The notes beneath the pieces were generated by a model, which did not search any database, had not been told where the DNA came from, and saw nothing but the letters and a program-made list of their open reading frames with translations. The translations under genes and the position numbers were made by a program. DNA of 64,000 nt, from assembly GCA_973895155.1 (NCBI GenBank), contig OZ316891.1, positions 19,059,048 through 19,123,047 on the forward strand, written 5' to 3'. The stretch comes from Marsupella aquatica. Taxonomy: Eukaryota; Plantae; Marchantiophyta. Positions 14,019 to 62,165 of the stretch are shown in pieces (the first letter of the stretch is position 1; each line of letters starts with the position of its first letter).

Positions 14019-14560
14019 TTGGAAAGCTCTTGGCGAGGCGATGAAAATTGATATAAATTGTGCCTCAAACGGTCAACATATGAGCAAGTTACCTCTAATT
14101 TAGGTTTTGTTGTTTCTTCAAATTTTTCGTGCATTTGACAATTTGGGCATTTTTGCGACTTGATTTGGATCATAACTTTCTTAATGCGGCTTGGATTGAG
14201 GACTTCTTGATGCTTCTAATAAGTTCTTGGCAAGGCGGTGAAGATCAATATGAATTGTGCCCCAAACAGTCAATGCATGAGCAAGTTATGTGTGATTTAG
14301 GTTTTGACATTTCTTCAAATTTTTGTTGCGTTTGGCAATTTGGGTATTTGTGTAACTTGATTTGGATTGCAACTTTCTTAATGCGGCTTGAATTCAGGAC
14401 TTCTTCACAATTTTGGGAAGCTCTTGGGAAGATGGTGAAGATTGATGCAAATTGTGCCCCTATCAACACATGAGCAAGTAATACCCGATTTAAGTTTCGT
14501 CGTTTCTTCAAATTTTGTCTACGTTTCGCGATTTGGGTTTTTGTGACTTGATTAGCATCA
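14019..14560. repeat. Degenerate tandem repeat, about 200-bp unit, about 2.7 copies
   Basis: Recurring CTCTTGG..GAAGATTGAT..AATTGTGCCCC..ATGAGCAAGT..TTTCTTCAAATTTT..GACTTGATT blocks. Confidence 0.7.
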
Positions 14561-16379
14561 CTTTGGAGTGTTCCTGTGTATTCTAGCAAGCTTTGGTGGC
14601 CCTTTGTTTTTAGCATGCTTTTGGAGTACTATGCATTTTGCATTCCGGCTCTTTGGGAGTTGTAGCAACTCGGTCTACAATAGTGGAAGGATCTTCATTC
14701 TATCAACTCGTTGGTGGCCACATTGTTCTTACCTTAACAACCCCAAGTTGGAGGCGGCGTTTTCTTGGAATGACGCGGTGGGCTCCTTCCATTATTTTCC
14801 ATTTCGTTCCACATACCTTGGTTGGGCCTAGTGTCGCTTACTTGTGCGCTTTTGCTTGTTTTTGGTTGTGGTCTTCCATATTTGCATTGAGAATGTTGGC
14901 GCATGGGAAGCGCCTAAATCCGAAAAACTATTCTCCTCCACTCTCCCCCCCCCCCTCGCGGTCACCCCTATGTTCACTTTCTTTCACCGAATCTTTTTCA
15001 TATTCAGGATGCACCTATGCATGATGCTTTACCAGCCCTTCCTCCCATCAATGCCATGCCTTTTGTTCCCCAGTCTATTGGACACCCCATTGTCATTTGG
15101 GCCAGTCTTCACCTCTCTCCTCACACCATGTCCCAACCCTATCTTTCCAGCTTCCTCATCAGGCCTATTTCCACGTCTGTTTTGTCTCCACTTGTAGTGG
15201 AAAATTTCCCTCCTCCCTCCCAAGAGGAGCATCCTCAGTACACTTGTCAAGATTGTGGTTGGGTTTCCATCTCCCTCCCTCATCATCAAGGGCGAGGCAA
15301 ATCCCAACGTTGCTAGTAGGCGCAATCCCAACCCTAGCCCCCGACCTTGTTGGCTTTGCCCCTCCCTCAGGGGCCTCACTCTAAGGGGGGTCTCATAACA
15401 CGCTCAATGTTTCTAGGTATTCTAGGTATACCCCTATCTTTTTGGAATACAGCTTTTTACTAGGTTAACCCCCAAACTGAGGCTTATTACAAAGTTGCCC
15501 CCCATTCTAATATAATTGCTATACTGCCCCCCGAACAGTAGATGGGTCAAAGTTCCCGGTATTCCAGGCCAGGGGCGCACCTCATTGGCTCTCCTTCACC
15601 CGAGCTGAGTTACCTTAACCCACCACCAGGTGGGAGTAACCCGTCCCGCCATCGCTACGGCAGCCGGTGCCCCGAGATGGAAATCCCCTCCCAGCCTGAC
15701 CCTAGCATTGCTTCCCGTTCAGAAAACGGCCACGTTTAGCTGCAGCTGTAGCAGCGCCTCAAAGGGAAGCATTTCACGAGCGATTGCAACTCGCGATTGG
15801 CACTTCCCCTGAACATTTTGGCATCCCACCAGGCAGGCGCGACCCTAATCGCTGCATTTTGGCTTGAGAAAAGTTCAGAATTTCTTCTTGAAACAAAGGC
15901 CTCACTTCGAGCTTCAGTTCTGCCCATTTCGTTGCACTGGCCAACATCATTTTCATCGTCTCTGTGAGGTATGAATTTCAGCTCTCGTTTTGCATTGGAT
16001 TCACCACTACAATATGTCAGGTCAATTCTGATTGCCTCTATTGTGCTTAAAATAAAGTGAACTCACTTCTGGTCATTTTTGGTCATTGTGTAGGCAGCAC
16101 GACAGCAGCACTTTGTGAGCGAATTCAGTTGACGACTGAATCGTCATTTCAGGTTGCAACTATCACAACAGACTATGCTCCTTCAAAAGCTTCAAAGCTC
16201 AACCAAGTAGTGGCCGTTCTAGCTCTCAATCATTTCTACTGGGCATTCTTGCTGTCAAACTTTGTGACACTCTGCAACCTTTTATCGACCTGCTGTGAAG
16301 TAGATTCGGTCCATTTTGTGATTTTCCTGCATTGAACATAACTTTGATTTCTATCATAAATTGTCTTTTGTAGTGCACG

Positions 16380-18375
16380 ATGTTACCAATGCCACATTCA
16401 TCTGAGAGAGTGGAAACAGAATTGAAGATAGGAAGAATGTTTGACAATTGGCCAGACCTGAAGAAATTGGTTGTGGATGAGGGAATTCGCACTGAGAGAC
16501 TCTTGGTCACCGACAAGAAGGATGACTATAAGTGGAAGTTGAAATGTAAAGTGGATTCTTGCCCCTGGAGACTAAGAGCTACAAAAAAGTCCAGCACGGA
16601 GATCATCACTATCACAAAAACATGCTTGCAGCACACCTGTGAACGTGCTGAGCATTACAAGCGACGAATGCATAGTAATTCAGACAGGCTAGCAGACAAA
16701 ATCATGGATGTTATCCTGAAGAACAGACAAACACGTCCATCTTTCTTGCGAGATTCGGCTCAGGCTTGGGTCCATCCGGATATCAAATACCATACTGCAT
16801 ATGCTGCCAAGCGGCGGTGCTTGAAGAGACTTGATGGAGATGAAACTGAGTCATTCCATCTAATACCAGCCCACTGTCATCACATTCTTGAGAGGGACCC
16901 TACAGGAGTTGCAAAATATAGAGCACCTGATGGGCATCTAGATATGTTATTTGTGTGTCCTTCAGCATCTAGGGAAGCATTTCATCATTGTAGGCCCATG
17001 ATTGCTTTGGATGGTACTCATACTCGCTGCATGTACCCTGGCATTTTGTTGCTAGCCACCACCTTGGATGCTAATAATACAGTCATCTTGCTAGCATATT
17101 GTTGGGTGCCTTCTGAAATGAGGCTAATTGGTTGGTGTTCCTGAATTTACTCAAAGATGCAATTCCAGATCTCTGCCGCCCTGGAGTTGTCTTTATATCT
17201 GATCGAGAGAAAGGCCTGACTGACGGAGTGCCAGAAGTTTTTCCACATGGAACCCCGGCATATTGCACCTGGCATCTTGGGGAGAATGTGCAGAAGCACT
17301 ATGGTAAGGAGATGAGAAAGCTATTTGACTCATTGCCTTATGCTGTGACCCCAACCAAGTATGACTTGCGGTTACAACAAATTGAGGACAAAAAGAAGCC
17401 AGCTGCTGACTACATTCGCAGGACAGCAAACCCAAAGTACTACTCTCGAGCACACTTCCCATCCAGAAGGTTTGTTCACAGCCTATACTTCATTTATACT
17501 TGATTGAGGTTGTTGCCTTTCTATTAATGAATTTTTTTCTTACAAGACAGGGGGCCTACAATTGTTGATGTAGGTGGGGACATGAAACATCGCAGCAGGC
17601 CGAGAGTAGTAATAGGGCATTGAAACCTCAACGTCAGGAGGTGACATTGAACATGTCGCAACAAATATGAGATTACATGATGGTGAAGTATTTTGAGAAG
17701 CGTGAGTTGGCTCAAACCTTGACTTCTCCATTTCCACCTAACATCATGAGCACTTTGATTGAGGTGGAAGAAAAAGCAGCTCTTTTGACAGCCCATCCTT
17801 CCCATGATGTTGAGGTAAGAATCACTGATGACAGGAATAGACAATACATAGTGCAGCTTCAGCCACAATGGTCCTGCACTTGTGGTGATTTCCAGGACAC
17901 TTTGTTGCCTTGTCTGCATGCATGGCGAGCCATAACTCGTCTACACAAGCGTCATTATGATTATGTGTCTTCCTATTACAGCACCGAGACTTTTAAGAAA
18001 ACGTATGATTGTCATTTGCCTGCCTTAGTTAGAGATGGGCTCATTCCAGACCCCTGGTGTGGTCCTCCACTGAAGAAGAGACGCAAAGGTCGTCCAACAG
18101 AGCGGCTAAGAATGCGGTTTAACGATGAGGAGGTCTGTAGGTTGCCACAAAAATGTGGGGTTTGTGGAGCACGAGGCCATGACCGAAGGAATTGTCTAGA
18201 ACGACCAACACGTGAGAAGGATGTGGAAGAACCTCAAACCACATCAGACATGGAGGAAGTTGCTGTGAATGATGAAGACGACCCCACCCACACTATCGTT
18301 GGATGGGGATCCCAAGAGAGCATGAACATTGGAAGCTTCTCACAGCTGCTAGCTACCATGGAGAGCCAACCTTGA
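16380..18375 (+). pseudogene. MuDRA-type transposase, disabled by a 1-bp frameshift (about 17118) and an in-frame TGA (17668-17670); intron 17470-17573
   Basis: KCKVDSCPWRLRA...HTC zinc DNA-binding domain; catalytic ALDGTH, FISDREKGL, YCTWHL, WGHETSQQAESSN; SWIM finger CTCGDFQDTLLPCLHA; zinc knuckle CGVCGARGHDRRNC. Adding one A restores PSENEANWLVFL. Confidence 0.92.
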
Positions 18376-18903
18376 CACTTCAATCTTTTCTGTGGAGGTC
18401 ATCAAACTTAGTGCTGATCAATATTCACTACATTTTGCACAGTAGTAATAGATTTTGGAACAAATTTTAGTAGACTGTAGTAGGCTTATAGATTTAGGTG
18501 CTACATACTCCCTGTTATGTGTGGATCAATGGTGAGGCAGATTTTGGCAGTGTATTGTTCACACTGGTTTAGAGCCCAGTGTGAAAAAAGGAGTTACGTG
18601 AATTGAGAAGAACATCTCAGTCTATTAATTTGCAAACTTCATTATGATTCACTTTTCTTGTGGACATGACAGTATGAATTGCATGGCAACAGTACTTTTT
18701 GAACTTGGACTTTGCAGGATAGTGCATTGGACCTTTCCAAAAAAAAAGAACTTTGTATTATCTCAAAATTAGCCACTTGGGGCAATACAACAAAAATTGG
18801 AAGCACTTGCTTCACTTTGCTACAAAAACTACAAAATTGTTTACAATCTGTCTACCTGAAACTCTGAGAAGCAAAAACTACTGAACAATATGTGGTCTGG
18901 TCT

Positions 18904-19524
18904 CTAATAATTGCCAGAGGCATGTCCTCGCCTTTGCAACAATCCACCTTGTAAATATGCACATGCCTCTTTCTCTGTTTTAAAGCTTTTAAACTTGCAG
19001 CCACTAAACCCATAGACCTGTCGTTCACATTCCTCCCATGTTTCATAGATACCTGGGGTGAAGCCACGTATGACAGCATAATATCTACGTCTTTGCCCAG
19101 GATGCCAGCCCCTACCATGTTCAACAACCAATTCCTGCAGCTCAGTGGACAAATTTGCAGGTGCCATTGCTCTTGGCTTGTGGTCGTCTTCACCTGCCAC
19201 ATTGAGATTGAGAGGTGTTTGTTGAGTCTCCAGGTTCATAGGTGCCTGAGGTGTTTCATGCTGCTCGAATTGATCCAAAACAAGCTTTGTTTCATTCTGC
19301 AACAACCCTGCTTCCCGCCCTGCTTGCATCTGCAATGTTCCAAGTAGTGTTGGGTTGGGGGGTTCTGTTGATTGCTCAGGTGCAGTCTCTAACCACATGT
19401 GCAGCTTATCCCGACCAGTTTCCATGGCATCAGACACAAATCGAAAAATGGAGCCAATCACACCCAAGATTGCCCAGAGACATATTGCAAGTGCCTCCAA
19501 TATGCTGCTTCTTGTTCTTGCCAT
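18904..19524 (-). CDS. MULE accessory gene, 206 aa: N-terminal hydrophobic segment plus C-terminal RNase H1 N-terminal/caulimovirus P6 (Cauli_VI) hybrid-binding domain
   Basis: Open from ATG 19524; ILEALAICLWAILGVIGSIF hydrophobic stretch; YYAVIRGFTPGIYETWEECERQVYGFSGCKFKSFKTEKEACAYL (about 19083-18952) fits the HBD consensus; no RNase H catalytic domain. Upstream acceptor (about 19575-19587) and donor GTAAGA (about 19792) suggest a spliced leader from the right TIR. Confidence 0.85.
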   Translation of the reverse strand: MARTRSSILEALAICLWAILGVIGSIFRFVSDAMETGRDKLHMWLETAPEQSTEPPNPTLLGTLQMQAGREAGLLQNETKLVLDQFEQHETPQAPMNLETQQTPLNLNVAGEDDHKPRAMAPANLSTELQELVVEHGRGWHPGQRRRYYAVIRGFTPGIYETWEECERQVYGFSGCKFKSFKTEKEACAYLQGGLLQRRGHASGNY

Positions 19525-22500
19525 AGGAATGCCACCAAAATTGCTCACGAGTTCTACAATGCAACACGATCTCACTGTTGAGCACTAAAAGAGAATGATC
19601 CCAATCTGCCAAAACTATTCCCACACATTGAAAGCAAGTAAATGTATTGATTCACACTGCTGTCGAACAGACAGAGGTGAAGTATATGAAGTTCAACAGC
19701 CGAGCAATCAGATGTGCACAAATACAAAAATGTATGTGCAGAAAAAGTGAGTTTGGAAATGAACAGGGGATTAGAATGATGTCGTCTCTTACCAAATGTA
19801 AGCTGGGACCGTTGCCTCTAATCGTGACTACAAATCGTGACCTGAGATTGCATGGACGTCAATCAGCCAGGCTCAAACGCAAGTCGAGAGCCAATGTCAC
19901 TAGCATTACTTCGCGAAATGGTATGAAGTCGAGCGTTTGTCGAAGCTTCCTTTGAACAAAAAATGCAGCAACTACCTCGAAGAAAAAACACAGTGACAAC
20001 TCTTCACCCAAAACGCAGCGATTAGGGTCGGGCCTGCCTGGTGGGATGGCGAAATGTTCAGGGGAAGTGCCAATCGCGAGCTGCATTCACTCGCAAAATG
20101 CTTCCCTTTGAGACACTGCTACAGCTGCAGCGAAACATGGCCAGTTTTTGAACGGGATGCAATGCTAGGGTTGGGCTGGGAGGGGATTTCCATCTCGGGG
20201 CACCGGCTGCCGTAGCATGGCGGGATGGGTTACTCCTGCCTGGTGGTGGGTTAAGGTAACTCAGCTCGGGTGAAGGAGAGCCAATGAGGTGCGCCCCTGG
20301 CCTGGAATACCGAGAACTTTGACCCATCTACTGTTCGGGGGGCAGTATAGCAATTATATTAGAATGGGGGGCAACTTTGTAATAAGCCTCAGTTTGGGGG
20401 TTAACCTAGTAAAAAGCTGTTTTGGAATATTCTAGAAATATTCTCAACATTCATTTCTAAAATCCTATCTTCTTTATTCAAAGGAAAACCCTATTTTCTT
20501 TTATAATTCTCAAAATTGAATTTTAAAAACCCTAACATTCTTCTACATAAATTTAAATGTATTCTTCTCAACCCAATAAACAAACCCTATCCTTACTTTT
20601 GTAGGATGGGTATAAAGGAAAATAAGTGAGGACCCCGGGATCTCGGCAGGCTTGGCATTGGATTTGCACCATGGACCCATTGTAGCCTACCATCTTGGGT
20701 ACATTAGACCCTGTCTTTATAACCACATTCCTCATGCGTTGTGTCCATTGGTTTGGTCCTCTTTGTTGCAGATCATGCAACTTATAATTATGCATCCTTT
20801 GGAGGTCTCCTATTGATCCTTGCTCATTGTTTTTCTAGAGCAAACTCTTACCCTCCATAGTCATGGTGGTCATGTTGGTCATCGAGGGGCTGCCTCATGA
20901 TACACCATTTTTTTGAGAGGAGATTGGAAGTAGCTTAAGAAAGAGTACTTTCTTCGAGCTCGCTCCTTTATTGCACGTGCTTTGTCTGATCTTGCTCACC
21001 ACTTCATTCCTCCTCAACATTGGCACCTTTGCCGAGCTTGTTGTTTAGCCGAGGCTGGAGAATATCGTTGCCATATCCAAGCCCTTTCTCCCACCACACC
21101 AGCTCCCCTTGGTGAGGTCACCTTGAGTGCCCTTCATGATCTTCATCCACAACCCTCGCCACAGCCCTATGACGAGCTTCCCTTATATGTGGATAATTTT
21201 GAGCCTTAGGAGGATCTTCATTTTAATAGGGAACATTTGGAGAACATTTCACCTTTGCCTTACTCCATGCTCCAAGTTATTTTGTTGGGGGCTCCTATGA
21301 CTATGTTTTTGAGCATTTTTGTGACTTCTTCCCCCCTAGCGACCCTTAGTCAAGCTTTTCAATTTTCTCTTCATTTTGCCAACCATTGCAGCAGGGCACT
21401 AGCCTCCTCTGGTCTCTCACATTTTGAACGCATCGCAATTACTAGCCATGGCTAAGTCATCCCCAGGAGTTTGGCCCATTGCGATTGGAGACATTTTTCC
21501 TCGTCTTGTGTCTCGCACACTCACATCACAATATGGTTCTGCACTATTATGTCATCTCTCTCCACAGTAGTTTGTAGTGGACATTCCTCAAGGTTGTGAG
21601 GTTATCATTGCGGGCATTCAGGCTACCTTGGGTCTCAACCCTGATTGGATTGTCCTAAAGGTAGATGTCTCCAATGCTTTCAACACGGTCTCATGAGCTG
21701 CCATTTTTTGTGCTTTGAGAGCAATGGATCCAAATATTTAGTCTCTTATCTTGGTTGTCCGTTGTTTTATCGTTTGGAGGCCCCTTTCCTTTACAGTCAT
21801 CACACCTCCACTGGAAAGTATACCACTATTTCTTCTACAGAAGTTACCACGTAGGATGACCCTTTGGGCAGGCCTTTTCTTCCCATTGCGCATTTTACAG
21901 CTCTTCGAGCAACCCCTTTTGCCCACCCCCAATATATTTTCCCCTCACTTTTTGATGACATCCACATTATTGGTCCTTTCATTGAGGTTGTCTCTACCCT
22001 CACCACCCTTCTGACCAGTTAATGGCCCTTGGTTTGCGGGTTCAGCCCGTGAAGGGTTATGCTTGGAGTCGGGCAGGTTTATCCTCCAATTTGGTGCTTC
22101 CCCTAGGTTCTTAAGTCCAGCAGTCTTTTGTCCTTGGCTCTCCTATTGGTACTCCTACCTTTGCTCATATTTTATTGTGAATGCTCTACATGTTGCTTTA
22201 GCCCCAGCACCCTAAGTTGGCAAATACTCAAGTAATATTCGGGACGTTGTTGAGATGCATCCACCCTAGGGCATCTTATCTTGCTAGGACGCATGCCCCT
22301 ACGGAGGAACTTTGTCGACACCTACATACTTTTGATGTTTCTATTTGAGAGACTTTTGCCTCCCTATTAGATCTTGGTTCTTTGCTCTCATCTCTATGGC
22401 TTCACCAACAACTCACACTTCCTATTTCTCAAGGGGGTTTTGGGCTTACTTCTATTGGGAGCATAGCACCGTTGGCATTTTTGGGTTCGTGGGCAACATC

Positions 22501-25112: not shown

Positions 25113-25485
25113 ATATTCTTACCCTTTTTGGCCCAATTCTTGCCAAAACTCTTGCCCCAAGTGTCACCCCACTCTCTACCGATATAAGCACCTACCATCC
25201 TCTACTTTGCATGGACTTCATAGCACACATTTTGCAGAATGACAATAGTTTTGAGAGTATAACCTTTTTGACAATCAGCCTTTAAGTTTATTGTCACTAG
25301 ATGTTTGAATTTACAATACTGCCACTATTTTTTTCATATTTATAAAAATGTCACGGTTTCCTTATATAGTTCCCCTGGTTACCTTGGTAAACTTGTCATC
25401 CATATACAAAATAGTGACATTTTTATAAATACAGAAAAAAAACAGTGGCAATATTGTGAATTAGAACATTTTTAGTGGTAAAGTA
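25113..25485 (+). repeat. About 370-bp dispersed repeat containing a 190-bp MITE-like foldback; inverted copy at 33196-33575
   Basis: Reverse complement of 33196-33575 at high identity; internal inverted arms TTG(T/C)CACTA..ATGTT..ACAATACTG.CACT...AGTGGCA.TATTGT..TTTAGTGG. Confidence 0.85.
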
Positions 25486-27504
25486 ATTAAAAGCTGTTCT
25501 CTAAAACTATGAACATCGGACTCTTGTGTATTTTTCCACAACTAATGTCATTTCTCAAGTTTCTTGCTCTGGACTTTATGAAGTTGTGACGTTCCGAAAT
25601 GTACTTTGGACCCTTTTTCCCCGCCTTTTTCAGAACTTGTGAAACTGTTTCTTTTAGATAAACTAGCGCTGACTACCCATTCTTTCTAAATCATGAATGG
25701 AATAGTCAAAAAAGTGACTCCTTAAGACAAAACAAATTTGGTATAGTGATAAGAATAGTGTATCAAAAGATGAAGGGATCGAAACCCCACTTGAGAACCT
25801 TTAAACTAGTGTTTTCAGAATTTGTGAAACTATTTCTTTCAGATAGATTCAGACAATACTGGTTTAGGAAAATGTTATTTGGCCCCCAATAGACTCAAAG
25901 ACTACCCATTTATTGTATCAAGAGGCGTGGGGGGACTGCAAAACACCAAGCTCACCTCTAATTGCATCAAATCAAAAGTAGTATTCTTTACTTTCCACTC
26001 CTAACATTTTTGGGTTTGTTGGGCTCACCCAAGAATCCCTCCCATTGCACATACCCATAGTCACACTTAGTTGACATGATGGCAATCCGAGCCTGTCACA
26101 TTCCAAGATTGTTCCTACAAGTTGATGAGACAGTCCATTCTATAGAAAACCTCTACTGTCCAAACTCTCTGTTGAGTGCTCCAACACTCCTCCCTAGGCA
26201 TTTAGTTCAGGTCAAAATTATCTGGACAAATTTTATATGTTTCGGTGATAAAAAAATGCTTTCTGGCCATAACAGCTTGAAGGAGAAAGATTTGATCAAT
26301 ACCATTGCATTACAATGGATGTAATTCTCCTCTTTAACAACATAATTATGCACAATCTCAGCTTTATACCTTTATACCTTGGCCATTCAATCATTGAACT
26401 AATAAACCTATCCATGTAGTGATGTTTCCTTTGAAACTTACTTTTGTGCAACTTTGAACCAAAACTGTCCAGAAAATTTTAAAAGTGTACTAGCCCTAAA
26501 TGTGCAACCTTTTGCACATATGTTTGAATCCAATGTCCCCTTTCTCACCTTTGTTAAGAGCTAGTTTATCTAGATGCAATCTAGTATATGTCTATGCTGG
26601 CACTTGCGGCAAACCACCATGAATTGTTTGGACAAAAAATTGCATATTTGGCCATATGCGTTTCCACAAAAACCTGATTAGTTTGTGTATGATGACTACA
26701 GGATATTTTGAGGGTCTGGGGCCTTGCAGAAAAATATTATAGAATTGTTGAGTAGAGTTGTGAAGATGAACCTGCCTCAATAGAGAGACTATAAATGACA
26801 ACTCAAGGGATATTAGAAAAGGAAGAAAGGGAACTGTATTGATTACTAACGCTAGCTACCTTAAATGCCAGTTTTGTTAAAAATACGTCGAGCCTTTGTT
26901 TTAGACAAATAGACCATTCAGATAGCGTGTCTACTCAACGCAACATTGTTTGATGTGAGGTTAATTTGAACACAGCAAGGATGAACTCTAGTTGAGTTCA
27001 TACAAACAAAACAATGTGAAGGAGCAATCAAATGGAGTTATGACACAACAAGTAGTGAGGAGGAAAGTTTGACCGTTCAATGTCATTTCAAGTTGCATCC
27101 TCCAGGTTGGTGTAACTCCGGCAATGAGGATGCATCCTTAGATGTTGTGATTGTCATCCAACGTGATAACAAATCTCTCAATTAGAGAATTAAAATCAAA
27201 CTATCAACCATTGTAAATACAAATCTGTCAAGAATAGACAAATCTCTCTCTTGGATGGAAGTAATCAGATCCTGAATAGCAATCCAATATTTACTCTCCA
27301 AGTGGTTCCCTGGAATTATTTATACCTGTCAAATTTTATTCCCGTACAGCGATTTTCAAAAGTCCTTTCACCCACCTTCCTCTGTATCTTGAGATCACAT
27401 TCTTCTTTATCCCAAGATCACAAATTCTAGGAGCTCAAAGTTCTTTGAGATTCCTTTGAACCCTGAAGTGAGATAGGAATTGATTACATGTAGAATACCT
27501 TGCT

Positions 27505-27519: not shown

Positions 27520-29819
27520 CTCAACTGGAATCTAGACTTAAGCAGTAATGAGGATCAACTATTTGATGAGAGGATGCAAATTTGGTGACTAGCCTCAATG
27601 TAAGACTTGAATTGCAAATCTAGCTGGGTATCAGTTTGATGCAATTTTATATTTAACTATAAATCATGGGTGGATTGGGGAATGTTGAGCAGTCAAATGA
27701 AGTAAAGGAAATAGGGCTATGGTAGTGGTGGTTTAATAAGAATCAGACTGAAGCTAAGTTGATTGCTAAATGTACAAGTATGCTCTCCATAAAGTGATTC
27801 ACAGATACTATATCACTGAAACAGTCAGGGACAATGGGGGGGTTGAATTTTGAGATGAGGTGATTCATGATCTTAAGCATCCACAAGATTGTTATTCACC
27901 GGTCCTTGATGTTCCACCAAAGCATGTATAAGCATAATCAATTTTGACATTTTAATAACATTGAGGACATAATACTATAATTGCAAAGGTGCAACAAGGA
28001 AGTTGCTTGACAATCATGACCTGCCTTTGGGAGCCATATGGTCAGGTCCCAACTTTCAGCCAGAGGAGAAGAATCTCAATTACGGATACCCTGATGGTAG
28101 AAGTTGATGAACCCTGAATAGCCAACCCCGAGATACACTCAACTGCTGGACAATACATCAACTTCATTGGACAATAAGGTTTCCAGAGAGCCAGCTAGCT
28201 ACAACAAACTTAGCTGTGAAGATCTTAGGTTTACCAAAATCTGAGAATGAGCCAAAGAAAAACCCAATCAAAGGAGAAGCACAGAAGCTTGAAGTTCATT
28301 TGGCCCCCACTGGTGTTGAGTGTTACAAATTCACCTATATTGACTACAGAGCTTCTTCAACATGCCCAATTCACTGCCACTACACGGTACTTGAATTCAT
28401 CTGACGATACCATTTAATTGTCTTGAGGCACTCTTGCCAATGAACAATATTGCATTTTCTGGGTTTTGAATTTCTTTATACCTGGAGATAGTTTCTTGGG
28501 CATGCATCATCATGATTGCATGTTCCCAAAGTTAGCCCAGCTTCATAAGATTGCCTACCTTGAAATTAAAACGCAGGCCCCACAGCTATACGTGTCATAC
28601 TTTTTCTTGAGCTATTTTAGGATGAGCAGACTGACTATTTACTTCTTCAATTCTCTTGCATCTGCTTTAAGCCATTTTGAGATATTTTGGGTCGAGTATA
28701 TGTGTTGACTGTTGCCTCCTTCAGCAATCTTTAAGGTCTACTCCATGCTATCTGATGTAAACTTGTGAGCTACATATCCACTTCAAGGTTTTGGATGAGA
28801 GAATCTGTGGAATCTGTTGTCCACAGATCGTGGTTAAAGCAGAGAATTGCCCACACAACATTTTAAACATCTCCTGAGAGAAAAATGAGGGTTGATGTAT
28901 CTTTCCTAAATGAAGCTAATGGGATGGAACAAGAAGGACAAAAAGAGAAATTCTTTATCTTTTATTTTGAGTTGTGCAATGAAGGCCTGGATATTATTTT
29001 GACAAGGGAAGGGTGTGGCTTGGAGTATGGATTCTGCAGGGATGTCTTTCATGCATACCAGCACAGTGGAAGTTGTTGGTCTGTAGGGGATTTGGAGTAG
29101 GTTTAACTCACATTGCTTGGCTCTGTTTGTGCTTCTCCAACAAGTTTTCTGCCTTATCTTTCTGCCTTGGCGCACTTCTCGTGTAAGCTCACTCACACTC
29201 TCATCTTGAATGCATGAAAACATATATATAATTCCTATTTTGTACTCTCAGATATTGTACAACAATACAGGCTACTCCAGTTTTGCTTCATTTTGGAATC
29301 CAGATTAAATTACATAACTAAATTACTCATTCTCAATTGACTTTTTGGTCTTTATTTCTGGTGCTCTAGCTGTGCTATACTTGAGGCAATATGTCCCCGT
29401 CTACCTCACATAGTTTATTCAAATCTAGGTTACGTGTGCACGGCTCTTGGTGTAATTTGGCATACTGCCTCCAGCAGCAACCAGATTTAAACAAAGTTGT
29501 AAATGACCCCTGGTTACCATTTGACTAGAAAGGATATATGTCACATAAACTGATTCTTTAGATTTGTCATTCTAGTGCTTGGCAGATTGAGGTGCTCCCT
29601 GTTTGATTCATTTTAGGTTTGTCACCATTTGAGTTTGCAATCATGTACCCAATAACTTGTTCAAATTGATTAGCCTTTGATCAGTGGAGCCCTTCTAAAA
29701 ATGTAATGGGTCAAAAGATTGTGACGTATATTTAGTCAGCTCACCAAATGTGCAAAAGGTACAAACATCAATGTAATAGACTGATTGGTAGGTTGGATTC
29801 TCTGCAGACAGTAGACAGC

Positions 29820-31789
29820 ATGGCAACCACAGCTGTGGATGTAAAGGAGCTTCCAAACTCTTATGTATTTGTTGCAGACATGCCTGGTCTGAAACATAGT
29901 GAAATCAAGGTACTATGGCAGTGTTTCAAAACTTACAATTTCAAAGCTTACTATCCTATGATATGGATTTGCTGTGACCTGGGGTTTGAATAGCTCAGTT
30001 AATCTTTTGGGTGAAGTGCTTTGAGCTGCTCTCCTCTACATTATGTTTCATATTGCCACATATCCATCAAACATGTTCTTCACCAGTTGATCCTTGAAAC
30101 ACTACATGCTTACATATAGATCATAAGAATTTGAAGAATTTTCAAATGAATCCTAATTTCGCATTTCATTTCATTAAGGTGGCATTCAATAGATCACTTT
30201 TATTTGTTACAGTTATAATCAGGAATAGAAAGATCAATGGACCAAGGGGTTTGTTTGGCCCATCCCAGGGACTGCGTGAGGTCATCAGCCAGTTTACATC
30301 TAGAAGAAAAAGGGACCAGCTGCTTGTGCAAGGACTCTTCACTTTTGGCTAGCATGGGGTTTGACCTGGCAAAGTCTAAGATATTTCTGAGATCAATTGC
30401 TCCATTTGTTATGAGAGTGAAAATGATCAAATATTATTTAGCAACTGTTGTTCACTTTTGTGAAGGACATCCTTAGTAGTTCTTTCTCCAGGAACCCCAA
30501 CCAGTTCTAAACTGTTGGTTTTTGGCAACTTGTACATTATCTGGATAGTCTTCTGATGTCTGTTTAATCTCAAAGTTTGCAAGCATGGGGTCTGATATCC
30601 AATCTTTGACCTCGCAAAGTCTAAGATTGTTCTGAGATCAATTGCTCCATTTTTTATGATGGAAAATGATCAAATATTGTTTAGCAACTGCCATTCACTT
30701 TTGTGAAGGACATACTAAATGAGTAGTTTGAGCATGATTGAGCAACAAATTAGCAGTTTTCTGGATGTACACTTCACTTTTGCAAAGTCGCCCTCAGTAG
30801 TTTAAGCATGAGTGACAAATTACCACTTTTGGGCATGAGCAGCAACTTATCACTGGGTAAACTAATTGATTCTGTCTGCAAACAATCACGAGGCCATCAT
30901 ATACAGAGCACATTATAGTCAAACTGTAAAATATGTCGCTCAATTTCCACTTGGGCTTTAGAGCAAGCCCCTGGGTCCATTTGGGCTTTAACTGGTAATT
31001 CCATTCTCTCCTTTATAAAACATGAAAGTCAATGGGGACTCACTATCTTAAAAGAGAGTTTGTAGGATAAATCTAAACTCTAAGTTTTGGTACATTAGAC
31101 AATCTCCCATTCACAACTTGTACGCAACAACTGGATCCTGGAATAGGCCAAGCAAATGAATGTAAAAATGTTGTGTAACTGTACTTCACCAGAAGCCTAG
31201 AAATCATCCTTTTTGATTATCATTGTTCAGATGATTCCAATGAAATTCAGGTCCCATTTACATTAAATACCGCAGACATATTGCTCAATGTTGTATCCCA
31301 TGTGACCTGTTAGTGTAGAACTTAATCTACAATACAAGTTCCTTGAATGAATTGTGATAAAGTCAGAGCAGGGATAACAATAGTGATGTTTGGTCACTGT
31401 GACACTATGAGTGTCAAGGTTGGAATACAAGAGGAAAACAATAAAAATGAAGAAAGGTTTTAGGCTGTGGGACCTTTCAATACTGGGCCATGAATGAGGG
31501 ATGTTTGCAGGTGCAAGTGGAGAATGATAGTGTACTGAAGATCAGTGGAGAAAGGAAGCGGGATGATTTTGCCACTGATACAGAGATCAAATATGTTCGA
31601 GTGGAGCGGAGTGCTGGGAAGTTTATGCGCAAGTTCAATCTGCCTGCAAATGCTAATTTGGATGGCATTTCTGCCGCCTGTCAGGATGGACTACTCACAG
31701 TGATTGTACCAAAGAACCCACCACCTGATCCCCACAGGCCCCGTACCTTTGATGTCAATGTTGGCTCCACCAGTGTTGCTCCTCCATAA
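29820..31789 (+). CDS. Cytosolic class II-like small heat-shock protein (HSP20/alpha-crystallin); exons 29820(or acceptor 29808)-29909 and 31511-31789
   Basis: [30 protein letters not shown]|[17 protein letters not shown]...[57 protein letters not shown]; canonical phase-0 GT-AG intron. A further upstream coding exon is possible but was not found. Confidence 0.92.
30351..30713. repeat. About 120-bp direct duplication inside the sHSP intron
   Basis: TTTGACCT.GCAAAGTCTAAGAT..TTCTGAGATCAATTGCTCCATTT...TTCACTTTTGTGAAGGACAT at about 30351-30470 and 30582-30713. Confidence 0.8.
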
Positions 31790-32058: not shown

Positions 32059-33195
32059 TGCATGTTGATTCTGCCCCAATCTGCCTCGTTGCCATGCCAC
32101 TTGAGTTCAGATGAGTTTGTGCGTGCTCTGGAATGAAGCAATGTCTGAATTGAATACACTGTAATGTTTTGCCCTTGTTTTGCTTTTCCTTGTTAAGATA
32201 GTTGAACAGAAATTAAGGGTACCACAAATTGGACCACAAGTCCACCACATGGAAGAACAGGCCTGGCCCTGATGCTCTCATGATGGACTTGAATGATGGG
32301 TATTCATTTTAAATGCTGGGGATGCTCCCAAGTGTGCATTGCTAGACAATTCTGGGAGGGGAAGCATATGTTGGTCACTTTAAGACACTTACAGGATGAT
32401 CTTGAGAGTTTTAGTCTACAATAGTGTTCAACAAATAATGTAGGACCTCTAAAATTGCTTTAAACTGCCACACTCCCCTATCATGTGGCAGGACAAAATA
32501 GTGCACTAATTACAGTGGCTCCGCCAGGTTTTGCTTGGGGACAGTGGTAGTTTAACCATAGTACATCATGCCAACACTAATAATGTGCACTTGAATACTT
32601 GCACCTTTGACACTATTTCAGCACAAACAAGATGAGCTTTCACAGAACAATTCTTGCAAATTTCCAGTTTCCCATTGAATGCAAATGAAATTGAAGCTGA
32701 CAATGGGAAAATTGAAAGTACCAGCCAAACGTTTTACAAAGTGATTCAACTGGTCCAACGATTGAACTGTAGTGATTCATTGTTTGATTATCGTAGAAAG
32801 CATGATGTGCACCAATCTACAAGACAAAACCTTCACGTTCACATAAGGTGCATTTTGTGATCCCATGTGACTTTAAATGTTTGGATGGAGATACCATATA
32901 AGCTTACAATGTATAAGTATCCAATAAAGTTTGATAAAAAGGCAACTGTGATCGTTCATTCAAAGAGCATGTGGGAATCCTATACGATTTAGAGAGCTTT
33001 TTGAAGGAGATCTCATTTACTATATATTAGTATGATTTCATCGAGGACTTTATGAGCCCATTGAGGGTTCCACAGATATTGTTGTGGTGATGTTCTCATC
33101 GTGAAATCGTTGTTGTGGCGGGTGCCATTGTCATTGCAATTGTGATGTTGTTGTGGCAGTGTTGTTGTCATAGAAAGCGTATTGTCAAAACAAGT

Positions 33196-33575
33196 ACTTT
33201 GCCACTAAAGATGTTCTAATTGACAATACTGTCACTGTTTTTTTCTCCTATTTATAAAAATGCCACGATTTTGTATATGGATGATAAGTTTACCAAGGTA
33301 ACCAGGGGAACTATATACGAAAACCGTGACATTTTTGTACATACAAAAAACACAGTGGCAGTATTGTAAATTCAAACAACTTTAGTGGCAATAAACTTAA
33401 AGGCTGATTGTCAAAAAGGCTATCAGCTCAAAACTATTGTCATTCTGCAAAATGTGTGCTACGTGTTGTTGAAGTCCATGCAAAGTAGAGGATGGTAGGT
33501 GCTTATGGGTAGAGAGTGGGGTGACACTTGGGGCAAGAGTTTTGGCAAGAATTGGGCCAAAATTGGTAAGAATAT
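33196..33575 (-). repeat. Inverted copy of the 25113-25485 repeat with MITE-like foldback at about 33199-33391
   Basis: Direct comparison of the two regions. Confidence 0.85.
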
Positions 33576-35730: not shown

Positions 35731-37262
35731 AGGAAGAGGAGGCGGACTGCCGGAGGGACGTGGAGGGACGTGGAGGACCGAATCCAGAAGAGGGAGGGAG
35801 GGAGGGAGGGAGGGAACGAACGATTCGAAGAAAGGCGGGACGACGACGATGTTGCGTCTGCTGCTGAGGAAGCGCTCTGTGTCGAGGCCGAGCAACGATC
35901 GCCACCGTGCAACGAGCGACTGACCATCATTGCTGTTCGGGAAAACCAGAGGTGACCAGCTTTGTTGCCGACGAGCTCCGTTGTTGATTCGAGTCTCGGA
36001 GTTCCGGATCGGGAACGTCGAGTTCGTCCGGGTTTGTGCTGCGGATCCGTCCGAGGAGCGAGGAACACGAAGAAAGAGGCTGCGGGAAGAAGAAGAGGGA
36101 GGGAGGGAGGGCGAGGCACGCACTACGTAGTTACTACGCACGGGCAGATATTTTGGGCGGAAAGGGAAGGGACGAAAACTCAATACGAAACGAAGAAAGG
36201 AGGAGGAGGAGGAGGAAGAAGAAGGGAAGGGAAGGAGTCGAAATCGAAAGGAGGAAGGGTGCATTTAATGTACACCTGCGGTTACTTGGTGGAGAACAGG
36301 GGAGGGACCTCGTAAGATGTCGGGGTGGAGCATGTGAGGAGAAGTGGAGGAGGAGGAAAGTGGAAGGAATAAGGCAGACAGGCAGGCAGTGGGTGGTGGT
36401 GGTCCTAGGGAAAAGGAAAGGGAAGGAGTTTTGAGGAGATCCATTTCGGTGGAGGCGGGTTTGGTGGTGATTGATACGGTTGATTTGTTCAGAGTCCTTT
36501 GAGCGCACAGACAGACACTACACTGTACCACCTTGTCGCGTGAAGGAGGCCAAAAAGGTTAAAAAGCGACTTTGTGTCCCGTCTCGTTGGTTCGGTGTGG
36601 TTCGGTTTAGTTCGGTTGTTCGGTTCTTTCTTGGTCAGAAAGGAGTTCGGTGGTAGGTTTCTTGTGTGTGCTGTGATGTCGAATGCCGTCGGCTAGGCGA
36701 GCGAGCGCTCATTGTTGAATTCCGGTGTTGAGAAGAGACTAGGGTAAAGGGATGACCTAGTTGTGGCACAGATATATCATAAACCTTCGACGTCGGGGTA
36801 AAACGGATTCGGGTTGGTTTGGGAAGGGTGGCTGCGGGACGCGAGGGGGAAAGGTTTGGTGGTTTCTTGTAGAGGAAAAATCTTGCTGGCTGGCTGTTGG
36901 AAGAGAGATCTATTTGATTTTTGGTGTGCCCCGCTGAAGATCATCCGTCTGATTTATTTCTTCTGCGGTGCTACATTGTTTTTGAGGTTACCTATTTAGG
37001 ACGCCATTGTTGAGTTTTTTGTTGCACAGCATTTATAGGCTTTACCTGCTGCTGTCATATTCGGGGCTTCTCTACCATTCCCTTCGTCTGCCTTCTTGCC
37101 TGATCTTTCCCCTTGCATATTTCATTTTCAAAAGATTTAGGTCTTCTGTTCTCTTCTGAAGCCACGTTCTGTAGAGCCATTTGCATCAGTAGCTTATTAG
37201 TAGTGTGCATCTCCATACCCTTGTACACCTAATCAGTGTTGACCTTTTGAAAGATTTTGGCA

Positions 37263-40200
37263 ATGTCGACTCCAATACCATCTTTAGGGAACAAAACCCC
37301 GGAGCAGCTCAGGGTCGCAGAACTCAGGGAAGAGCTTAAAAAACGAGGAATTAACATCAAGGGCCTAAAAAAGGATTTGGTTGAAAGGTTGGATGAAATT
37401 CTGCGCCAGGAAGCAGCAGAGGCGGCCGATAATGAGACCAAGAAGTCTCCCAGTCCCGAGCGGGTCAGCGATAAAGACGAAGAAACTCCCGCTTCTCCTG
37501 CAGTTGTCTTTGAAGCTGTCACGCAACCACCAGGAGAAGAGGACGCTGCAGGTAAAGTGGTTGACCTCAGCCTCGATGTGGGTGAGGTCGAACCCAGCAG
37601 TGAGCCCTTGCATGGAGGGGATGATCTCAAGACAGGAATCGTTGACCCCATACTCAGTGTGCCGGTCCCAGAGGAGGATGATCTCTCTAAAGGCAAGGGA
37701 AGCGAAGTGGCCACATCTCTGGTGGCTTTTGCAGAGCCAGAAGTTGTTGCGAAAGGGGAGCCTGTTTTCGTCGGGCCAGTTCGCTCTCTGACGGCTGAAT
37801 CTATTTCTTCTCCGAACCTTGATGAACTCCCAAGCATAGAGCCAGAAAGCGCTCCACCGGTCGAGGTCACGGATGAGAGCAACAAGACCTTTGTGGATGA
37901 AGGCAAATTGGAGTTTGAGGACACAAGAGATGAGAATCTTGACTCTGGCAAGTTAATAGAGGCTGACGGCGTAGTAGAAGCAGAGCCTGAAGCCATCAAA
38001 TTTCCTGAAGTGGAAGTGCAGGACGAGGCCGAGCAATTGAAGTCACATTATGGCTCTGGTCCAACGTCCTCCACAGACGCTGTGATCATTGAGGCTTCAG
38101 AAGCAGAAGAGGTCCGAACAGAGACTGCAGTTCTGTCAGAGGGACTTCGGTCGACAGCATACGGGGAAAGAGATGCCGAGGAGGAGTCTGTTGTGGCAGA
38201 GACTGGAGGAGACTTAATGACAACTGAGACTGTGACCGTAGAGACGGTTTCTGTCGTCACAGAGACCACGGTCGTGACCACGGAGACAGTTGTCGTGAAT
38301 GAGATTGAGGCAGACCTGTCCACGGTTGAGGGCGATCGCGAGGGATCGTTCACTCAGAGGAGTTCCGACGCAGGAACTTTGAGTAATGAGGGGAGGGTGG
38401 CAGAGGAAGCCTTACTGCAAAACAGAGATCAAGACGAAGGAATGGAGGTAGAGCAAGATAAGGCCAAAGACTCCAAGCCCATGGAGATTGACTCCGACAG
38501 TTTGACAGGAGTGAAGCGGAAAGATGGAGGTGGTTTCTTGGTTCCCGGTTTTCTATTACGTTATCTTGTCTGGCCATCCTATCTACTTTCTAGTGGTGAT
38601 AATTCCTTTGGTGGCATGTAAACATCCCAAGCGAACGAATAGTAATGTTGAGAAATGGCCCGCGTTTACAAGTACGATGCAGGGTGAAATCCTCGGCTGC
38701 TCTTAACCATATGTTCATTGTGAGATGGATATAATTTTCGTAGTTTGTGAGCTCTGTTGTTGCAACCAAGTATAGGAAGTGTGTTGTACACTCGATAAAG
38801 TGCTGAGTCCTTTTTGGTGTTTCTGCAGAGGAACTAAGACAGCAAGAGCCTGCCAAAAGGCAGAGGCGCTGGAATTCTGATAAGAGTCTTGGAGCTAGCG
38901 CAGATGTAACTTCACCTCCTCAAGTGAATACAACTGACACTTTGAAGGAAGCAGTCGCGCCTGCTGCCCGTGACATACCTCAGAAACCTGTGGCACCGTC
39001 TCCATCCACTACGTCGTCATCTACACCCAAGGCTTCTGCAGCGTCTACCAGCTTTGATAAGCCGGCACCTTCCAGGACTATTCTGTCAAGAACTGATATT
39101 GCGGTTAACGGTGACGCAGACAAGAAACGAGTGGGTGGGTTCCTCTAACCGTGACGATGTAGCCGAGTTTTCTCTTATCGTACAATCTGTTCTGTGATCC
39201 GACCATGACCTAGATTTGTTTTCTATGTGGTGGTTTTGCTCTACACTTGGCAAGGTTGAATGGGACATGACATGAGAGTTTCAATGTGTTTGGACGCAGT
39301 TCCTCCTCCCACAAGAAGTCCAACGGTTGCTCTAAAGATTGACAGATTCGTCAGGCCTTTCACAATCAAGGCCGTGAAAGAACTTTTGCAACAAACTGGA
39401 ACAGTGAAACACATGTGGATGGATCAAATAAAGACCCATTGCTTCGTGACGGTAAGACTCCCTTATATGATTTGCACAATCTTCTTGCTAGGCAGCTGTG
39501 TGTTTCCTTAGTAGTGGGAGGCGCTTTTTCTGCTTCGATTATGTTTTATTAAATTCCCTGACTTTGATTGCCAGCAGTGGTTCCAGAGTATCTTCATTTG
39601 AAAGCCGATCATCGCTACCCCGGATTCTGCCTGTTGTTCATGACTTAACATTCCACTTGTGCTCAATGCAGTATTCTTCTGTAGAGGAGGCAACTGCAAC
39701 GAGGAACTCCCTTTATCACCTGCAATGGCCTGTGGCTGGAGGGAAATTGCTTATTGCTGAATTTGTGGAACCTGAAGAGGTAATGGCACGAGTTGAAGGT
39801 ACGAACGATAAGCCGGTTCCTACACCTGTAACGACGCCACGTGGCTCCGCAAACAGCTCAACGCAAGTGGCAGGCGTTATGGGGATAACTCCTCCTGCGG
39901 CACACATCCCCACCAGTGCTCTTCCGCCCCCACCACCGCTTCCACCACCTCCAAGAGAGAGGCCAGCACTGCCACCAAAGAAAGGTAAAGGTTGGCTTAG
40001 GATGTTGAAATTAACGTTGGTGTTGAAGAAGTCAATGATGTACGAAAGCAGCATAAGAATCTAATTAATTGCTTAGCTGATATCAGATGTACCATCCTTC
40101 CCGCTTCTTGCTGAATTCCCCAGAAATTCCCATATGAAACTCTTCGACTCCAAAAATCTAAGTTCAAGATTGATCATCCAACTACTGTCTCAGTAGAGCT

Positions 40201-43785: not shown

Positions 43786-45473
43786 CTAATAAGCACTCTT
43801 GGAGGCTGCCCACGTCCCTGGATACTTGTTTGCGTCCTCTAGAATGTTCTTTCTCAAGGTACTACTTATAAACCCAGTAAGCTTTTGAATGACTGAACTG
43901 TCAATAGTTTCTGCCTTACAAACGGTGAAATGATTTGCTGATTGGTTGGTGTAATAATTAGATTGATCGATGTCACATCGAGCGGATGCGTCTTCAACAA
44001 CTACTTTTCTGAACACAAAACATGTGTACGGTGCCTGCATTGACGAACGAAAATCACGTTACGGGACGGCCAGCACTATCATCATGAAAAAACTCCCATA
44101 CGGGTGAAAAGTTCGGATGAATCATATTCCCCAAATTGAGGACCAAAAGCTTGACAAGTCCTCAATTTGGGGAATATCAATCAGTGGATGGATCCATCAA
44201 TCAGTGAAAATTTAGTTTGATCTTTACTCTTCAAATGAGGAACCAAGCACTTGAAACAGAAAGGTCGAGAGATCATACCCGCGCCGAGATTGCTGCGGTA
44301 TAGCCTGAACTCCTCGTTGATCCTTGTTCGGTGGGTATCCAGAGTCTTGAGGAGTCCTAGAATCGGACTTGTGAATGGCAGCCGAGATGCCAAGTCTGCT
44401 ATCCTGGAGCCTTGATGGGGAGTAGCGTAGTAGAACACGCCTCTGAAGTTTGCAAGAAACGCTTCAACTCTGGAACTGTCTCGCGGTTTCATTGTAGTTT
44501 GCTTCTGAAATGCAGAGATGATGAGTTGCTTAATGACTAATCCTCCGAGACTGTGACCCACAAAAAACACTGGGCGAACTATGCCGATGTCGAGATCTTC
44601 ACTCATAATGATGTCACTAACCAAGTTTTCTCCCAAGGCATACATATCCAGTTGACCTTCACTTTGTTGTGCAGAAGAATCATAAGAGACGGAGAATATC
44701 CGAGCCTTCGGGTACTTCTTGGGGAGCCAGTCTCTTGGCCAGATCACACTTTCGTCCTTCCTAGCCAGCCAAGTCTTCCAAAATGCATTTCTGAAGTCTC
44801 TCAATTGTAGACCATGAAAAAATATAATGTCCATCTCAATTTTCCCTTCAGGTGGAGAATACAGTTTATACACATAGTCGTTAAGCTGCAGATTCAGCAC
44901 GAGAAAGACATTTATCAGTAGAAGTTAGTGAAAATAGACGAGTAAGACATTTTCAAAATACGTGAATCCTATATGTTGAGAAAGAGCCCTTCGACACGGG
45001 ACTCCCGGATCAATGTGCTCAAAATCTCAAAATTGAGATGGATGCGATAGTGAATAAACTTCACCGTATTACAACTGAAGCAAGCTTGTTAGATATTTGA
45101 GCAAGCTTCACGACATGTTGCAATCATGTTTTATTTAAAATTTTGAGAAAGGCTTTAAGAGCGAAAATTGAGATGGAACTTGGAGACTGCGCTAAGTCTG
45201 CTATAGAGAGATTTAGAACACAACAGGAAGCAAACTCGTTTTGGAAAATTTTGGCATTCTTAGAGCAGGATATGAATCAACGATGCGTTGATTTATAACA
45301 GTCAGCGCATACAAAAGACTCCAATCCTCCATAGCAAACTGATTTCAGCGATCACTAACCTTGCTTATGCCTTCAGGTAGCTTGACCTCTGAGGAGTCTT
45401 CTTCGCCATCGGGTGAACTGCCGGGGATCGTGATCGTCAGACCCAGCGCTGCAGTCGGTGAGGAATCATGCAT
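43786..45473 (-). CDS. Stand-alone alpha/beta-hydrolase (SERAC1/DUF676-like; the type found N-terminal to NB-ARC in liverwort hydrolase-NLRs); exons 45473-45360, 44885-about 44280, 44034-43786; last junction unresolved
   Basis: DIIFFHGLQ..AFWKTW..IWPRDWLPKKYPKARIFSVSYDSSA; nucleophile elbow FVGHSLGGLVIK; GVFYYATPHQGS; last exon VVEDASAR..ANHFTVCK then stop. The exon 1-2 junction is clean phase 0. Confidence 0.8.
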
Positions 45474-59000: not shown

Positions 59001-59261
59001 ACCTCCTCGAGGCTACGTCCACGGGAACACACAAGAGAGCTTTACTGAACTCTAATCCCGTCGACTATACCAAGTCTCCACAGTGTAAGCTCTCCTCATC
59101 TCTCAAGTGACCCCATAACAATAAGCCTAAGTTCCACTTATCCAAGCAAACACCGCTTGGCATATAGTGTGCATCCTAGTTAACCTAACCACGTCTCCGA
59201 CTACGGTTAGTCTAACTATGGTTACATGTCACAACCCTAGACCTTGAGTAAATACCTAATA
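53033..59261 (-). mobile_element. Full-length decayed Ty1/copia (Tnt1-like) LTR retrotransposon, 6,229 bp
   Basis: 343-bp LTRs at 53033-53375 and 58919-59261; TSD GGGAG at 53028-53032 and 59262-59266; tRNA-Met PBS TGGTATCAGAGC next to 58919; PPT AAGGGGGAGAT next to 53375; 13 LTR mismatches by manual count. Confidence 0.98.
53568..57817 (-). pseudogene. Copia gag-pol with stops and frameshifts
   Basis: Gag KFEVTKYDG..YLLW, knuckle CWKCHKVGH, protease WILDCACSFH, integrase SFIDDY/LRSDNGGEY/PQQNGVAERLNRTL, RT YVDDML, RNase H GYVDSDY..RSTTGY..KHIDVRYHFIR; order PR-INT-RT-RH. Confidence 0.95.
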
Positions 59262-61531: not shown

Positions 61532-62165
61532 GGGTAATTTTCCCATCTGCCCATGGAGGAGTGTTACAGTTGACACCCCTGTTAAGGGACCATGATGTAG
61601 AGGAGATATCTATTTGCTCTCAAAACAAACAAAACAGCATGATTGTCATCATCCTTGAAATGGGTAATTTCTCCAATCTGCCCATGGAGGAGTGTTACAG
61701 TTGACACCCCTGTTAAGAGACCATGATGTAGAGGATATATCTATTTGCTCTCAGAACAAACAAAACACAGCATGATTGTCATCATCCTTGAAATGGGTAA
61801 TTTCTCCAATCTGCCCATGGAGGAGTGTTACAGTTGACACCCCTGTTAAGAGACCATGATGTAGAGGAGATATCTATTTGCTCTCAAAACAAACAAAACA
61901 CAGCATGATTGTCATCATCCTTGAAATGGGTAATTTCTCCAATCTGCCATGGAGGAGTGTTACAGTTGACACCCCTGTTAAGAGACCATGATGTAGAGGA
62001 GATATCTATTTGCTCTCAAAACAAACAAAACACAGCATGATTGTCATCATCCTTGAAATGGGTAATTTCTCCAATCTGCCCATGGAGGAGTGTTACAGTT
62101 GACACCTCTGGTAAAGTGCCATGATGCAGAGGAGAGAACTATTTGCCCTCAAACAAACAATACAG
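61532..62165. repeat. Tandem repeat, 130-133-bp unit, about 4.8 copies, upstream of the RWD gene; diverged monomer at about 60293-60410
   Basis: Units start at 61532, 61662, 61795, 61928 and 62060 (GGGTAATTT...CATGGAGGAGTGTTACAGTTGACACCCCTG...). Confidence 0.95.

Follow-up and report, generated by a model that had tools for sequence, protein, structure and literature searches.

A Mutator-like element of Marsupella aquatica with a candidate accessory gene for a nuclease-free hybrid-binding-domain protein

In the maize Mutator-like element (MULE) MuDR, the genes mudrA and mudrB are convergent. VANC, an accessory protein of Arabidopsis MULEs, acts on DNA sequence-specifically, whereas the RNase H1 hybrid-binding domain (HBD) binds by shape: RNA:DNA hybrids are bound without sequence preference and double-stranded RNA (dsRNA) more weakly. 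Here, a 4,970-bp MULE was analyzed that lies at 15450-20419 of a 64,000-nt window, the window being the whole stretch of Marsupella aquatica contig OZ316891.1 from position 19,059,048 to 19,123,047 (assembly GCA_973895155.1). Its second open reading frame (ORF), ORF2, encodes a 206-aa HBD protein and is regarded here as a likely accessory gene, selected within the element family.

MuDR has two ORFs (PMC6446971), and both mudrB and vanC have been described as MULE accessory genes (PMC6446971; PMC12973397). VANC of the Arabidopsis VANDAL/Hiun MULEs has been proposed to counter silencing (PMC6446971; PMC12973397). The HBD family itself, Cauli_VI (PF01693), was tallied as accessory cargo in 1 of 1846 MULE clusters, 3 of 775 CACTA clusters and 1 of 217 PIF/Harbinger clusters, and inside the transposase in 3 of 217 for PIF/Harbinger (PMC12973397 Table S6); it appears in that table only, the main text making no mention of it. 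In addition, capE of a Pleurotus Helitron carries PF01693 (PMC4289320). These cases share with ORF2 a nuclease-free PF01693 in a DNA transposon, one active MULE cluster included; in the text available they are tallied only and uncharacterized, and their likeness to ORF2 is known for the HBD alone.

Compared with MuDR, the present element has the same long terminal inverted repeats (TIRs), 10-bp target-site duplication (TSD), MuDR-type transposase and small second gene on the opposite strand. It differs in the recognizable HBD and hydrophobic N-terminus of ORF2 and in the broken transposase of this copy. No likeness of ORF2 to MURB was detected, Pfam giving PF01693 only. With the VANDAL/Hiun elements it shares the carriage of an accessory gene by a MULE, but no VANC-like protein was seen among the HMMER matches listed (150 of 5,130), all of which lie on the HBD. 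The initial annotation had presented ORF2 as a candidate MULE accessory gene of a kind not known to be characterized. This stands insofar as focused literature searches, with subscription papers and Repbase outside their scope, listed no paper characterizing an HBD-only MULE gene; it does not stand for the domain, which earlier work had already counted among the cargo that TIR transposons of plants carry (PMC12973397 Table S6). The main text of PMC12730594 mentions neither RNase H nor Cauli.

Structure of the element and state of its transposase

The features of the element, in window coordinates, were as follows.

15440-15449, no strand: left TSD, 10 bp
15450-15869, + strand: left TIR, ~420 bp
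16380-17469, + strand: MuDR-type transposase, coding exon 1, with DBD_Tnp_Mut, LDGTH, SDRE and CxxH motifs and a 1-nt frameshift near 17115-17122
17470-17573, + strand: predicted GT-AG intron, 104 nt, placed by frame continuity only
17574-18375, + strand: transposase exon 2, with AESSN catalytic motif, SWIM and zinc knuckle and a premature stop at 17668-17670
18904-19524, - strand: ORF2, 206 aa, intact, with hydrophobic helix, acidic disordered linker, HBD and extended C-terminal helix
18955-19086, - strand: RNase H1 HBD (PF01693), ORF2 residues 147-190, Pfam match
19447-19503, - strand: ORF2 hydrophobic segment (Kyte-Doolittle), residues 8-26, a putative anchor in the membrane or signal
20001-20419, - strand: right TIR, ~420 bp
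20420-20429, no strand: right TSD, 10 bp

The clean TIRs and 10-bp TSD reported in the initial annotation were recovered. As aligned, the TIR arms (15446-15869 and 20001-20423) are 94% complementary over 413 nt, with 98% for the ~200 outer nt and 90% for the ~216 inner nt. The element is flanked by exact copies of TTTTGGAATA at 15440-15449 and 20420-20429 (chance ~2e-6), and this length of 10 bp agrees with the TSD of 9-10 bp expected for the MULE/MuDR superfamily (PMC6446971). The third superfamily feature, a DDE transposase that combines a Mutator DNA-binding domain with MULE and SWIM domains, was also found, the PF10551 piece scoring below the cut-off. On all structural tests run, the element is a MULE.

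Four public sequencing runs hold the element (X1 to X4), all of them DNA runs, from two organisms (A and B) and two studies; no RNA run is among the four listed. Contigs of these runs show the same insertion in both organisms, with long stretches and flanks identical. The element is inserted in a high-copy repeat. It is missing from contigs of related copies of that repeat, one of which departs from the window sequence at 15449. Within the 64-kb window, no further copy of ORF2 or of the transposase was found. A contig of run X3 links position 15601 in the left TIR to position 19502, where ORF2 has its 5′ end, and runs X3 and X4 show raised depth over 19440-19560. Organism B may therefore also carry a derivative of ~1.1 kb that arose by internal deletion of the element.

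The transposase gene spans 16380-18375 (+ strand) with one predicted intron. Pfam returned PF03108 (E 7e-8), PF04434 (E 3e-6) and a fragment of PF10551 (E 7e-4, below cut-off). All three acidic motifs can be recognized, as can CxxH; the gene is full-length though broken. When its 5′ part was compared with longer proteins, 1 of 841 matched, an unnamed 621-aa MULE transposase (28%). Both lesions, neither of them noted in the initial annotation, the 1-nt frameshift near 17115-17122 and the stop codon at 17668-17670, were seen in run contigs. They are considered real because contigs of run X1, which may derive from the source of this DNA, show 0 differences from the window over 16976-17299 and 17604-20203; contigs of relatives read differently at both sites. 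Sequencing error as the source of the lesions was ruled out by these public DNA-run contigs. With its transposase disrupted at two places, this copy is non-autonomous and does not represent an intact two-gene autonomous MULE. Nor is it a Pack-MULE, in which the transposase gene is absent, as a full-length, broken transposase gene is there.

ORF2, its hybrid-binding domain and its relatives

The frame of ORF2, convergent to the transposase gene on the opposite strand, was confirmed as annotated, as was the N-terminal hydrophobic segment (Kyte-Doolittle maximum 2.31, residues 8-26). A second in-frame Met, Met34 at 19425, lies just past this segment and has G at -3 and +4. The linker (residues 46-135), previously called Q/P-rich, is only mildly so (Q+P 19/90) and is acidic (15 D/E vs 4 K/R). 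The HBD is complete, matching PF01693 over 44 of 44 profile positions (E 7e-19; 68.2 bits vs a cut-off of 21), which settles in its favor the HMMER check that had been proposed for it; PF01693 is the sole Pfam family in ORF2. In RNase H1 a catalytic domain follows the HBD, whereas ORF2 ends 16 residues past it without any nuclease match, again as first described.

The predicted structure comprises a helix from residue 2 to 50 holding the hydrophobic segment, a low-confidence linker, the HBD and a last helix to residue 203. Against PDB sequences ORF2 gave three matches, human and yeast HBDs only (best human 3bsu, E 4e-8). Foldseek with the ORF2 model returned no match at E≤0.001, the top entry being 3bsu, with human and yeast HBDs leading. 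ORF2 resembles the RNase H1 HBD (PF01693; human 3bsu, yeast 1qhk) in its sequence, in the fold predicted for it and in the majority of contact residues, and differs from RNase H1 in its missing catalytic domain, its longer last helix and the C-terminal position of the HBD behind a hydrophobic helix and linker. Among the human contact residues named in PMC9603397 and PMC6868509, Y29, W43, F58 and K59 are kept and R57 is replaced by K (3bsu alignment). From its sequence, the ORF2 HBD is a predicted candidate binder of RNA:DNA hybrid or dsRNA.

For the analysis of selection, contigs of three of the four runs were aligned to 18890-19560 at 80% likeness, X2 being omitted for having nearly no cover there. 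Organism B holds one identical ORF2 copy plus a ~94% variant (runs X3 and X4), and both organisms hold ~82% relatives (runs X1, X3 and X4) that match in the HBD only. ORF2 is hence not unique to this element copy. The relatives show 52 substitutions, of which the 40 best-supported were tabulated; 18 of these are synonymous and none creates a stop. In HBD codons 141-196, 9 of 15 tabulated changes are synonymous against an expected share of 0.20-0.27, computed under three transition biases (P 0.001-0.008; crude omega ~0.2); one further tabulated substitution falls at codon 197. Tabulated indel events, three in all, are in frame (+3, -6 and -12). Reading the loose ends by hand gave tails of RRGH or RRGR for the relatives, like the short RRG tail of ORF2 and unlike the tail of the host-type family described below. 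A contig of the ~94% variant continues from the 3′ end of ORF2 into the element spacer; this variant may be a partial element, because X3 shows no comparable rise in cover over the transposase leader. The HBD of ORF2 is constrained among its relatives, with an excess of synonymous change. The initial annotation had named four findings that would speak against it; three were tested, i.e. an ORF confined to one copy, a neutrally drifting RNase H1 exon and a missing PF01693 match, and the data showed none of them.

When 1.84 billion proteins were searched with ORF2 by HMMER, 5,130 matched; the 150 listed are all centered on the HBD. The best single-domain matches are the unnamed proteins P0071/P0153, P0188 and P0147/P0154, which form a tight clade in an HBD tree (support 100/93). 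A profile search added protein CAM6111292.1 of the liverwort Calypogeia fissa; among the other 64 of its 68 rows, most were RNase H1 enzymes. Like ORF2, members of this unnamed family (P0071, P0147, P0154, P0188 and P0189) have a long N-terminal helix with a hydrophobic segment, a disordered linker, a single HBD and an extended helix ending in HA. Among 253 collected proteins, a hydrophobic N-terminus occurs only in ORF2 (P0001), P0154 and P0188, and the extended-helix pattern in only six, all of the group formed by ORF2 and the unnamed family. PF01693 is the sole Pfam family in the three members scanned. The family ends in a conserved H..H..CxxC module, predicted to form three strands and zinc-ribbon-like, which ORF2 lacks; no hidden exon with such a tail was found in the DNA downstream of ORF2. 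Identity between ORF2 and the family is 29-35%, and the N-terminal 140 residues of ORF2 have no significant match to the family. In the HBD tree (built from the 60 best-scoring of 243 sequences and P0189, with duplicates removed; 56 rows, 53 columns) ORF2 was left unplaced relative to the unnamed-family clade. Layout and score suggest a kinship. The literature searched contained no description of this family.

In a metagenome scan, 80 of 141 loci were kept, all matching about the HBD only, and tblastn to transposase pieces gave 0 of 80; a word-index search with the ORF2 protein gave 0 of 99 candidates. For ORF2 (0.93) and P0188 (0.87), the ESM Atlas pointed to HBD-only clusters from Basidiomycota, which are leads only, recognition being below the 2300 mark. 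Also encountered were proteins in which an HBD is joined to a PIF1 or UvrD helicase (P0046, P0050, P0087, P0095 and P0116), one of them from Mesostigma viride.

Other features of the window

An inverted repeat of ~380 bp (89%) is formed by 25113-25488 and 33192-33575, with internal palindromic likeness in each arm and no TSD found around it. It encloses a small heat-shock-protein-like gene (labeled by eye) that is split by a long intron, with pieces near 29800-29910 and 31510-31786. An exon of a SAP-domain gene lies at 37251-38618 (+ strand; 456 aa open). A DUF676 alpha/beta-hydrolase frame is present at 44184-44924 (- strand), of a kind found ahead of plant P-loop domains; no P-loop frame was found within the next 4 kb. 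A Copia long terminal repeat (LTR) retrotransposon occupies 53033-59259, with LTRs of 341 bp (96.5%) and integrase and reverse transcriptase frames. Together with the SAP-domain gene and the DUF676 hydrolase, it gives the window a eukaryotic, plant-like gene content. Tandem arrays were found at 14024-14561 (197-bp unit, 2.8 copies) and 61532-62164 (133-bp unit, 4.8 copies).

Possible roles of ORF2 and their meaning

That ORF2 is an accessory gene selected within the transposon family is the reading we consider likely, and it would make ORF2 the second gene, probably selected, of a new layout among two-gene MULEs. ORF2 was probably acquired from a family of host type that has the same layout, and the zinc-ribbon-like tail was then probably lost. 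Inward transcription from both near-identical TIRs would yield transcripts that converge, and RNA that folds back. The ORF2 protein would then cover RNA:DNA hybrids or dsRNA of the element in competition with host RNase H1 or Dicer-type enzymes, the long form residing on a membrane while the Met34 start could yield a soluble form, and binding without cleavage would lower silencing. If the gene is indeed transposon-selected, the chances of such shielding as its mechanism seem slightly better than even. The joint claim, a selected accessory ORF2 that shields element RNA from host silencing, is put forward tentatively, as its chances are rather below even.

Several observations weigh against this interpretation. 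Intactness of ORF2 in this copy proves little, since with two lesions per 1,893 nt a neutral ORF of 621 nt stays whole about half the time (0.52). Codons 1-140 (N-terminus and linker) show 9 of 24 synonymous changes and no significant constraint (P 0.07-0.21), these changes coming mostly from the ~94% variant. Substitutions were pooled over several relatives and are non-independent, and the 40 of 52 that were tabulated come from stretches passing the 80% filter. The HBD of one relative carries a 5-nt frameshifting insertion (a loose end read by hand). No contig linking a diverged ORF2 to a transposase was found among the run contigs, and at 80% likeness the transposase is covered by many more contigs than ORF2 is, so many relatives of the element may be without ORF2, although depth gives no copy number here. 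Within the HBD, the human contacts R35 and K60 are F and S in ORF2; among other HBDs, KS is the commonest state at the K60 place (117 of 302) and an aromatic residue occurs at R35 in 36 of 327. The predicted membrane anchor would fit poorly with a free chromatin factor. Finally, support for silencing suppression had initially been sought in P6/TAV of cauliflower mosaic virus, a 520-aa caulimovirus protein that shares the HBD. P6 suppression requires domain D-I, deletions of which abolish it, and survives a deletion within miniTAV, a region overlapping the RNase H-like domain (PMC3836500). The analogy is weak because suppression maps outside the shared domain.

A captured passenger, i.e. a Pack-MULE-like pickup of most of a helix/HBD/zinc-ribbon host gene whose constraint derives from host lineages or early history, is unlikely but deserves serious weight. 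It agrees with the best single-domain matches being a same-layout tight clade (100/93) with one member from the liverwort Calypogeia fissa, with the lack of the H..H..CxxC tail, as in a truncated capture, with near-neutral linker changes and with the singleton status of MULE Cauli_VI cargo among 1846 clusters (PMC12973397 Table S6). On the other hand, the frame is whole at an identity to the unnamed family of only 29-35%, by which any capture would be old; several distinct relatives share the tail peculiar to ORF2, one of them frameshifted as transposon copies are; and the HBD tree (53 columns) does not put ORF2 in the unnamed-family clade.

Quite unlikely, in our estimate, is a MURB-like transposition cofactor, in which a soluble Met34 form or a form in the inner nuclear membrane would bind R-loops and transposase, thereby directing new insertions towards transcribed DNA or aiding reinsertion. 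In maize, MURB binds to the N-terminus of MURA, and insertions become heritable only when MURB is available (PMC12973397), an HBD was scored within those 3 of 217 PIF/Harbinger transposases (PMC12973397 Table S6) and Met34 has its G residues at -3 and +4; against this, no sequence likeness to MURB was found, and the present copy is inserted in a high-copy repeat rather than at the start of a gene. A benefit to the host or another off-element role, such as a membrane-tethered sensor or an organelle competitor of host RNase H1 with the transposon as mere carrier, appears improbable. The insertion shared by organisms A and B, with its identical stretches and flanks, and a hydrophobic N-terminus suited to membrane or organelle targeting would accord with it, but TIRs and TSD are fresh, and copies differ between the organisms, one being broken.

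Returning to ORF2 as a transposon-selected gene, the HBD is a candidate convergent tool because it recurs in MULE, CACTA, PIF and Helitron elements. The wider proposition is a long shot: plant and fungal DNA transposons of several superfamilies would have repeatedly recruited a nuclease-free HBD as a sequence-independent counter-silencing tool, membrane-anchored in the present case and holding hybrids or dsRNA of the element at a membrane, off the silencing machinery. If true, DNA transposons would have a way of countering silencing at the RNA level that differs from that of VANC. For most MULE second genes no biochemistry can be assigned; ORF2 has a domain of solved structure with known contact residues, and therefore transposon defense at the level of R-loops or dsRNA becomes testable.

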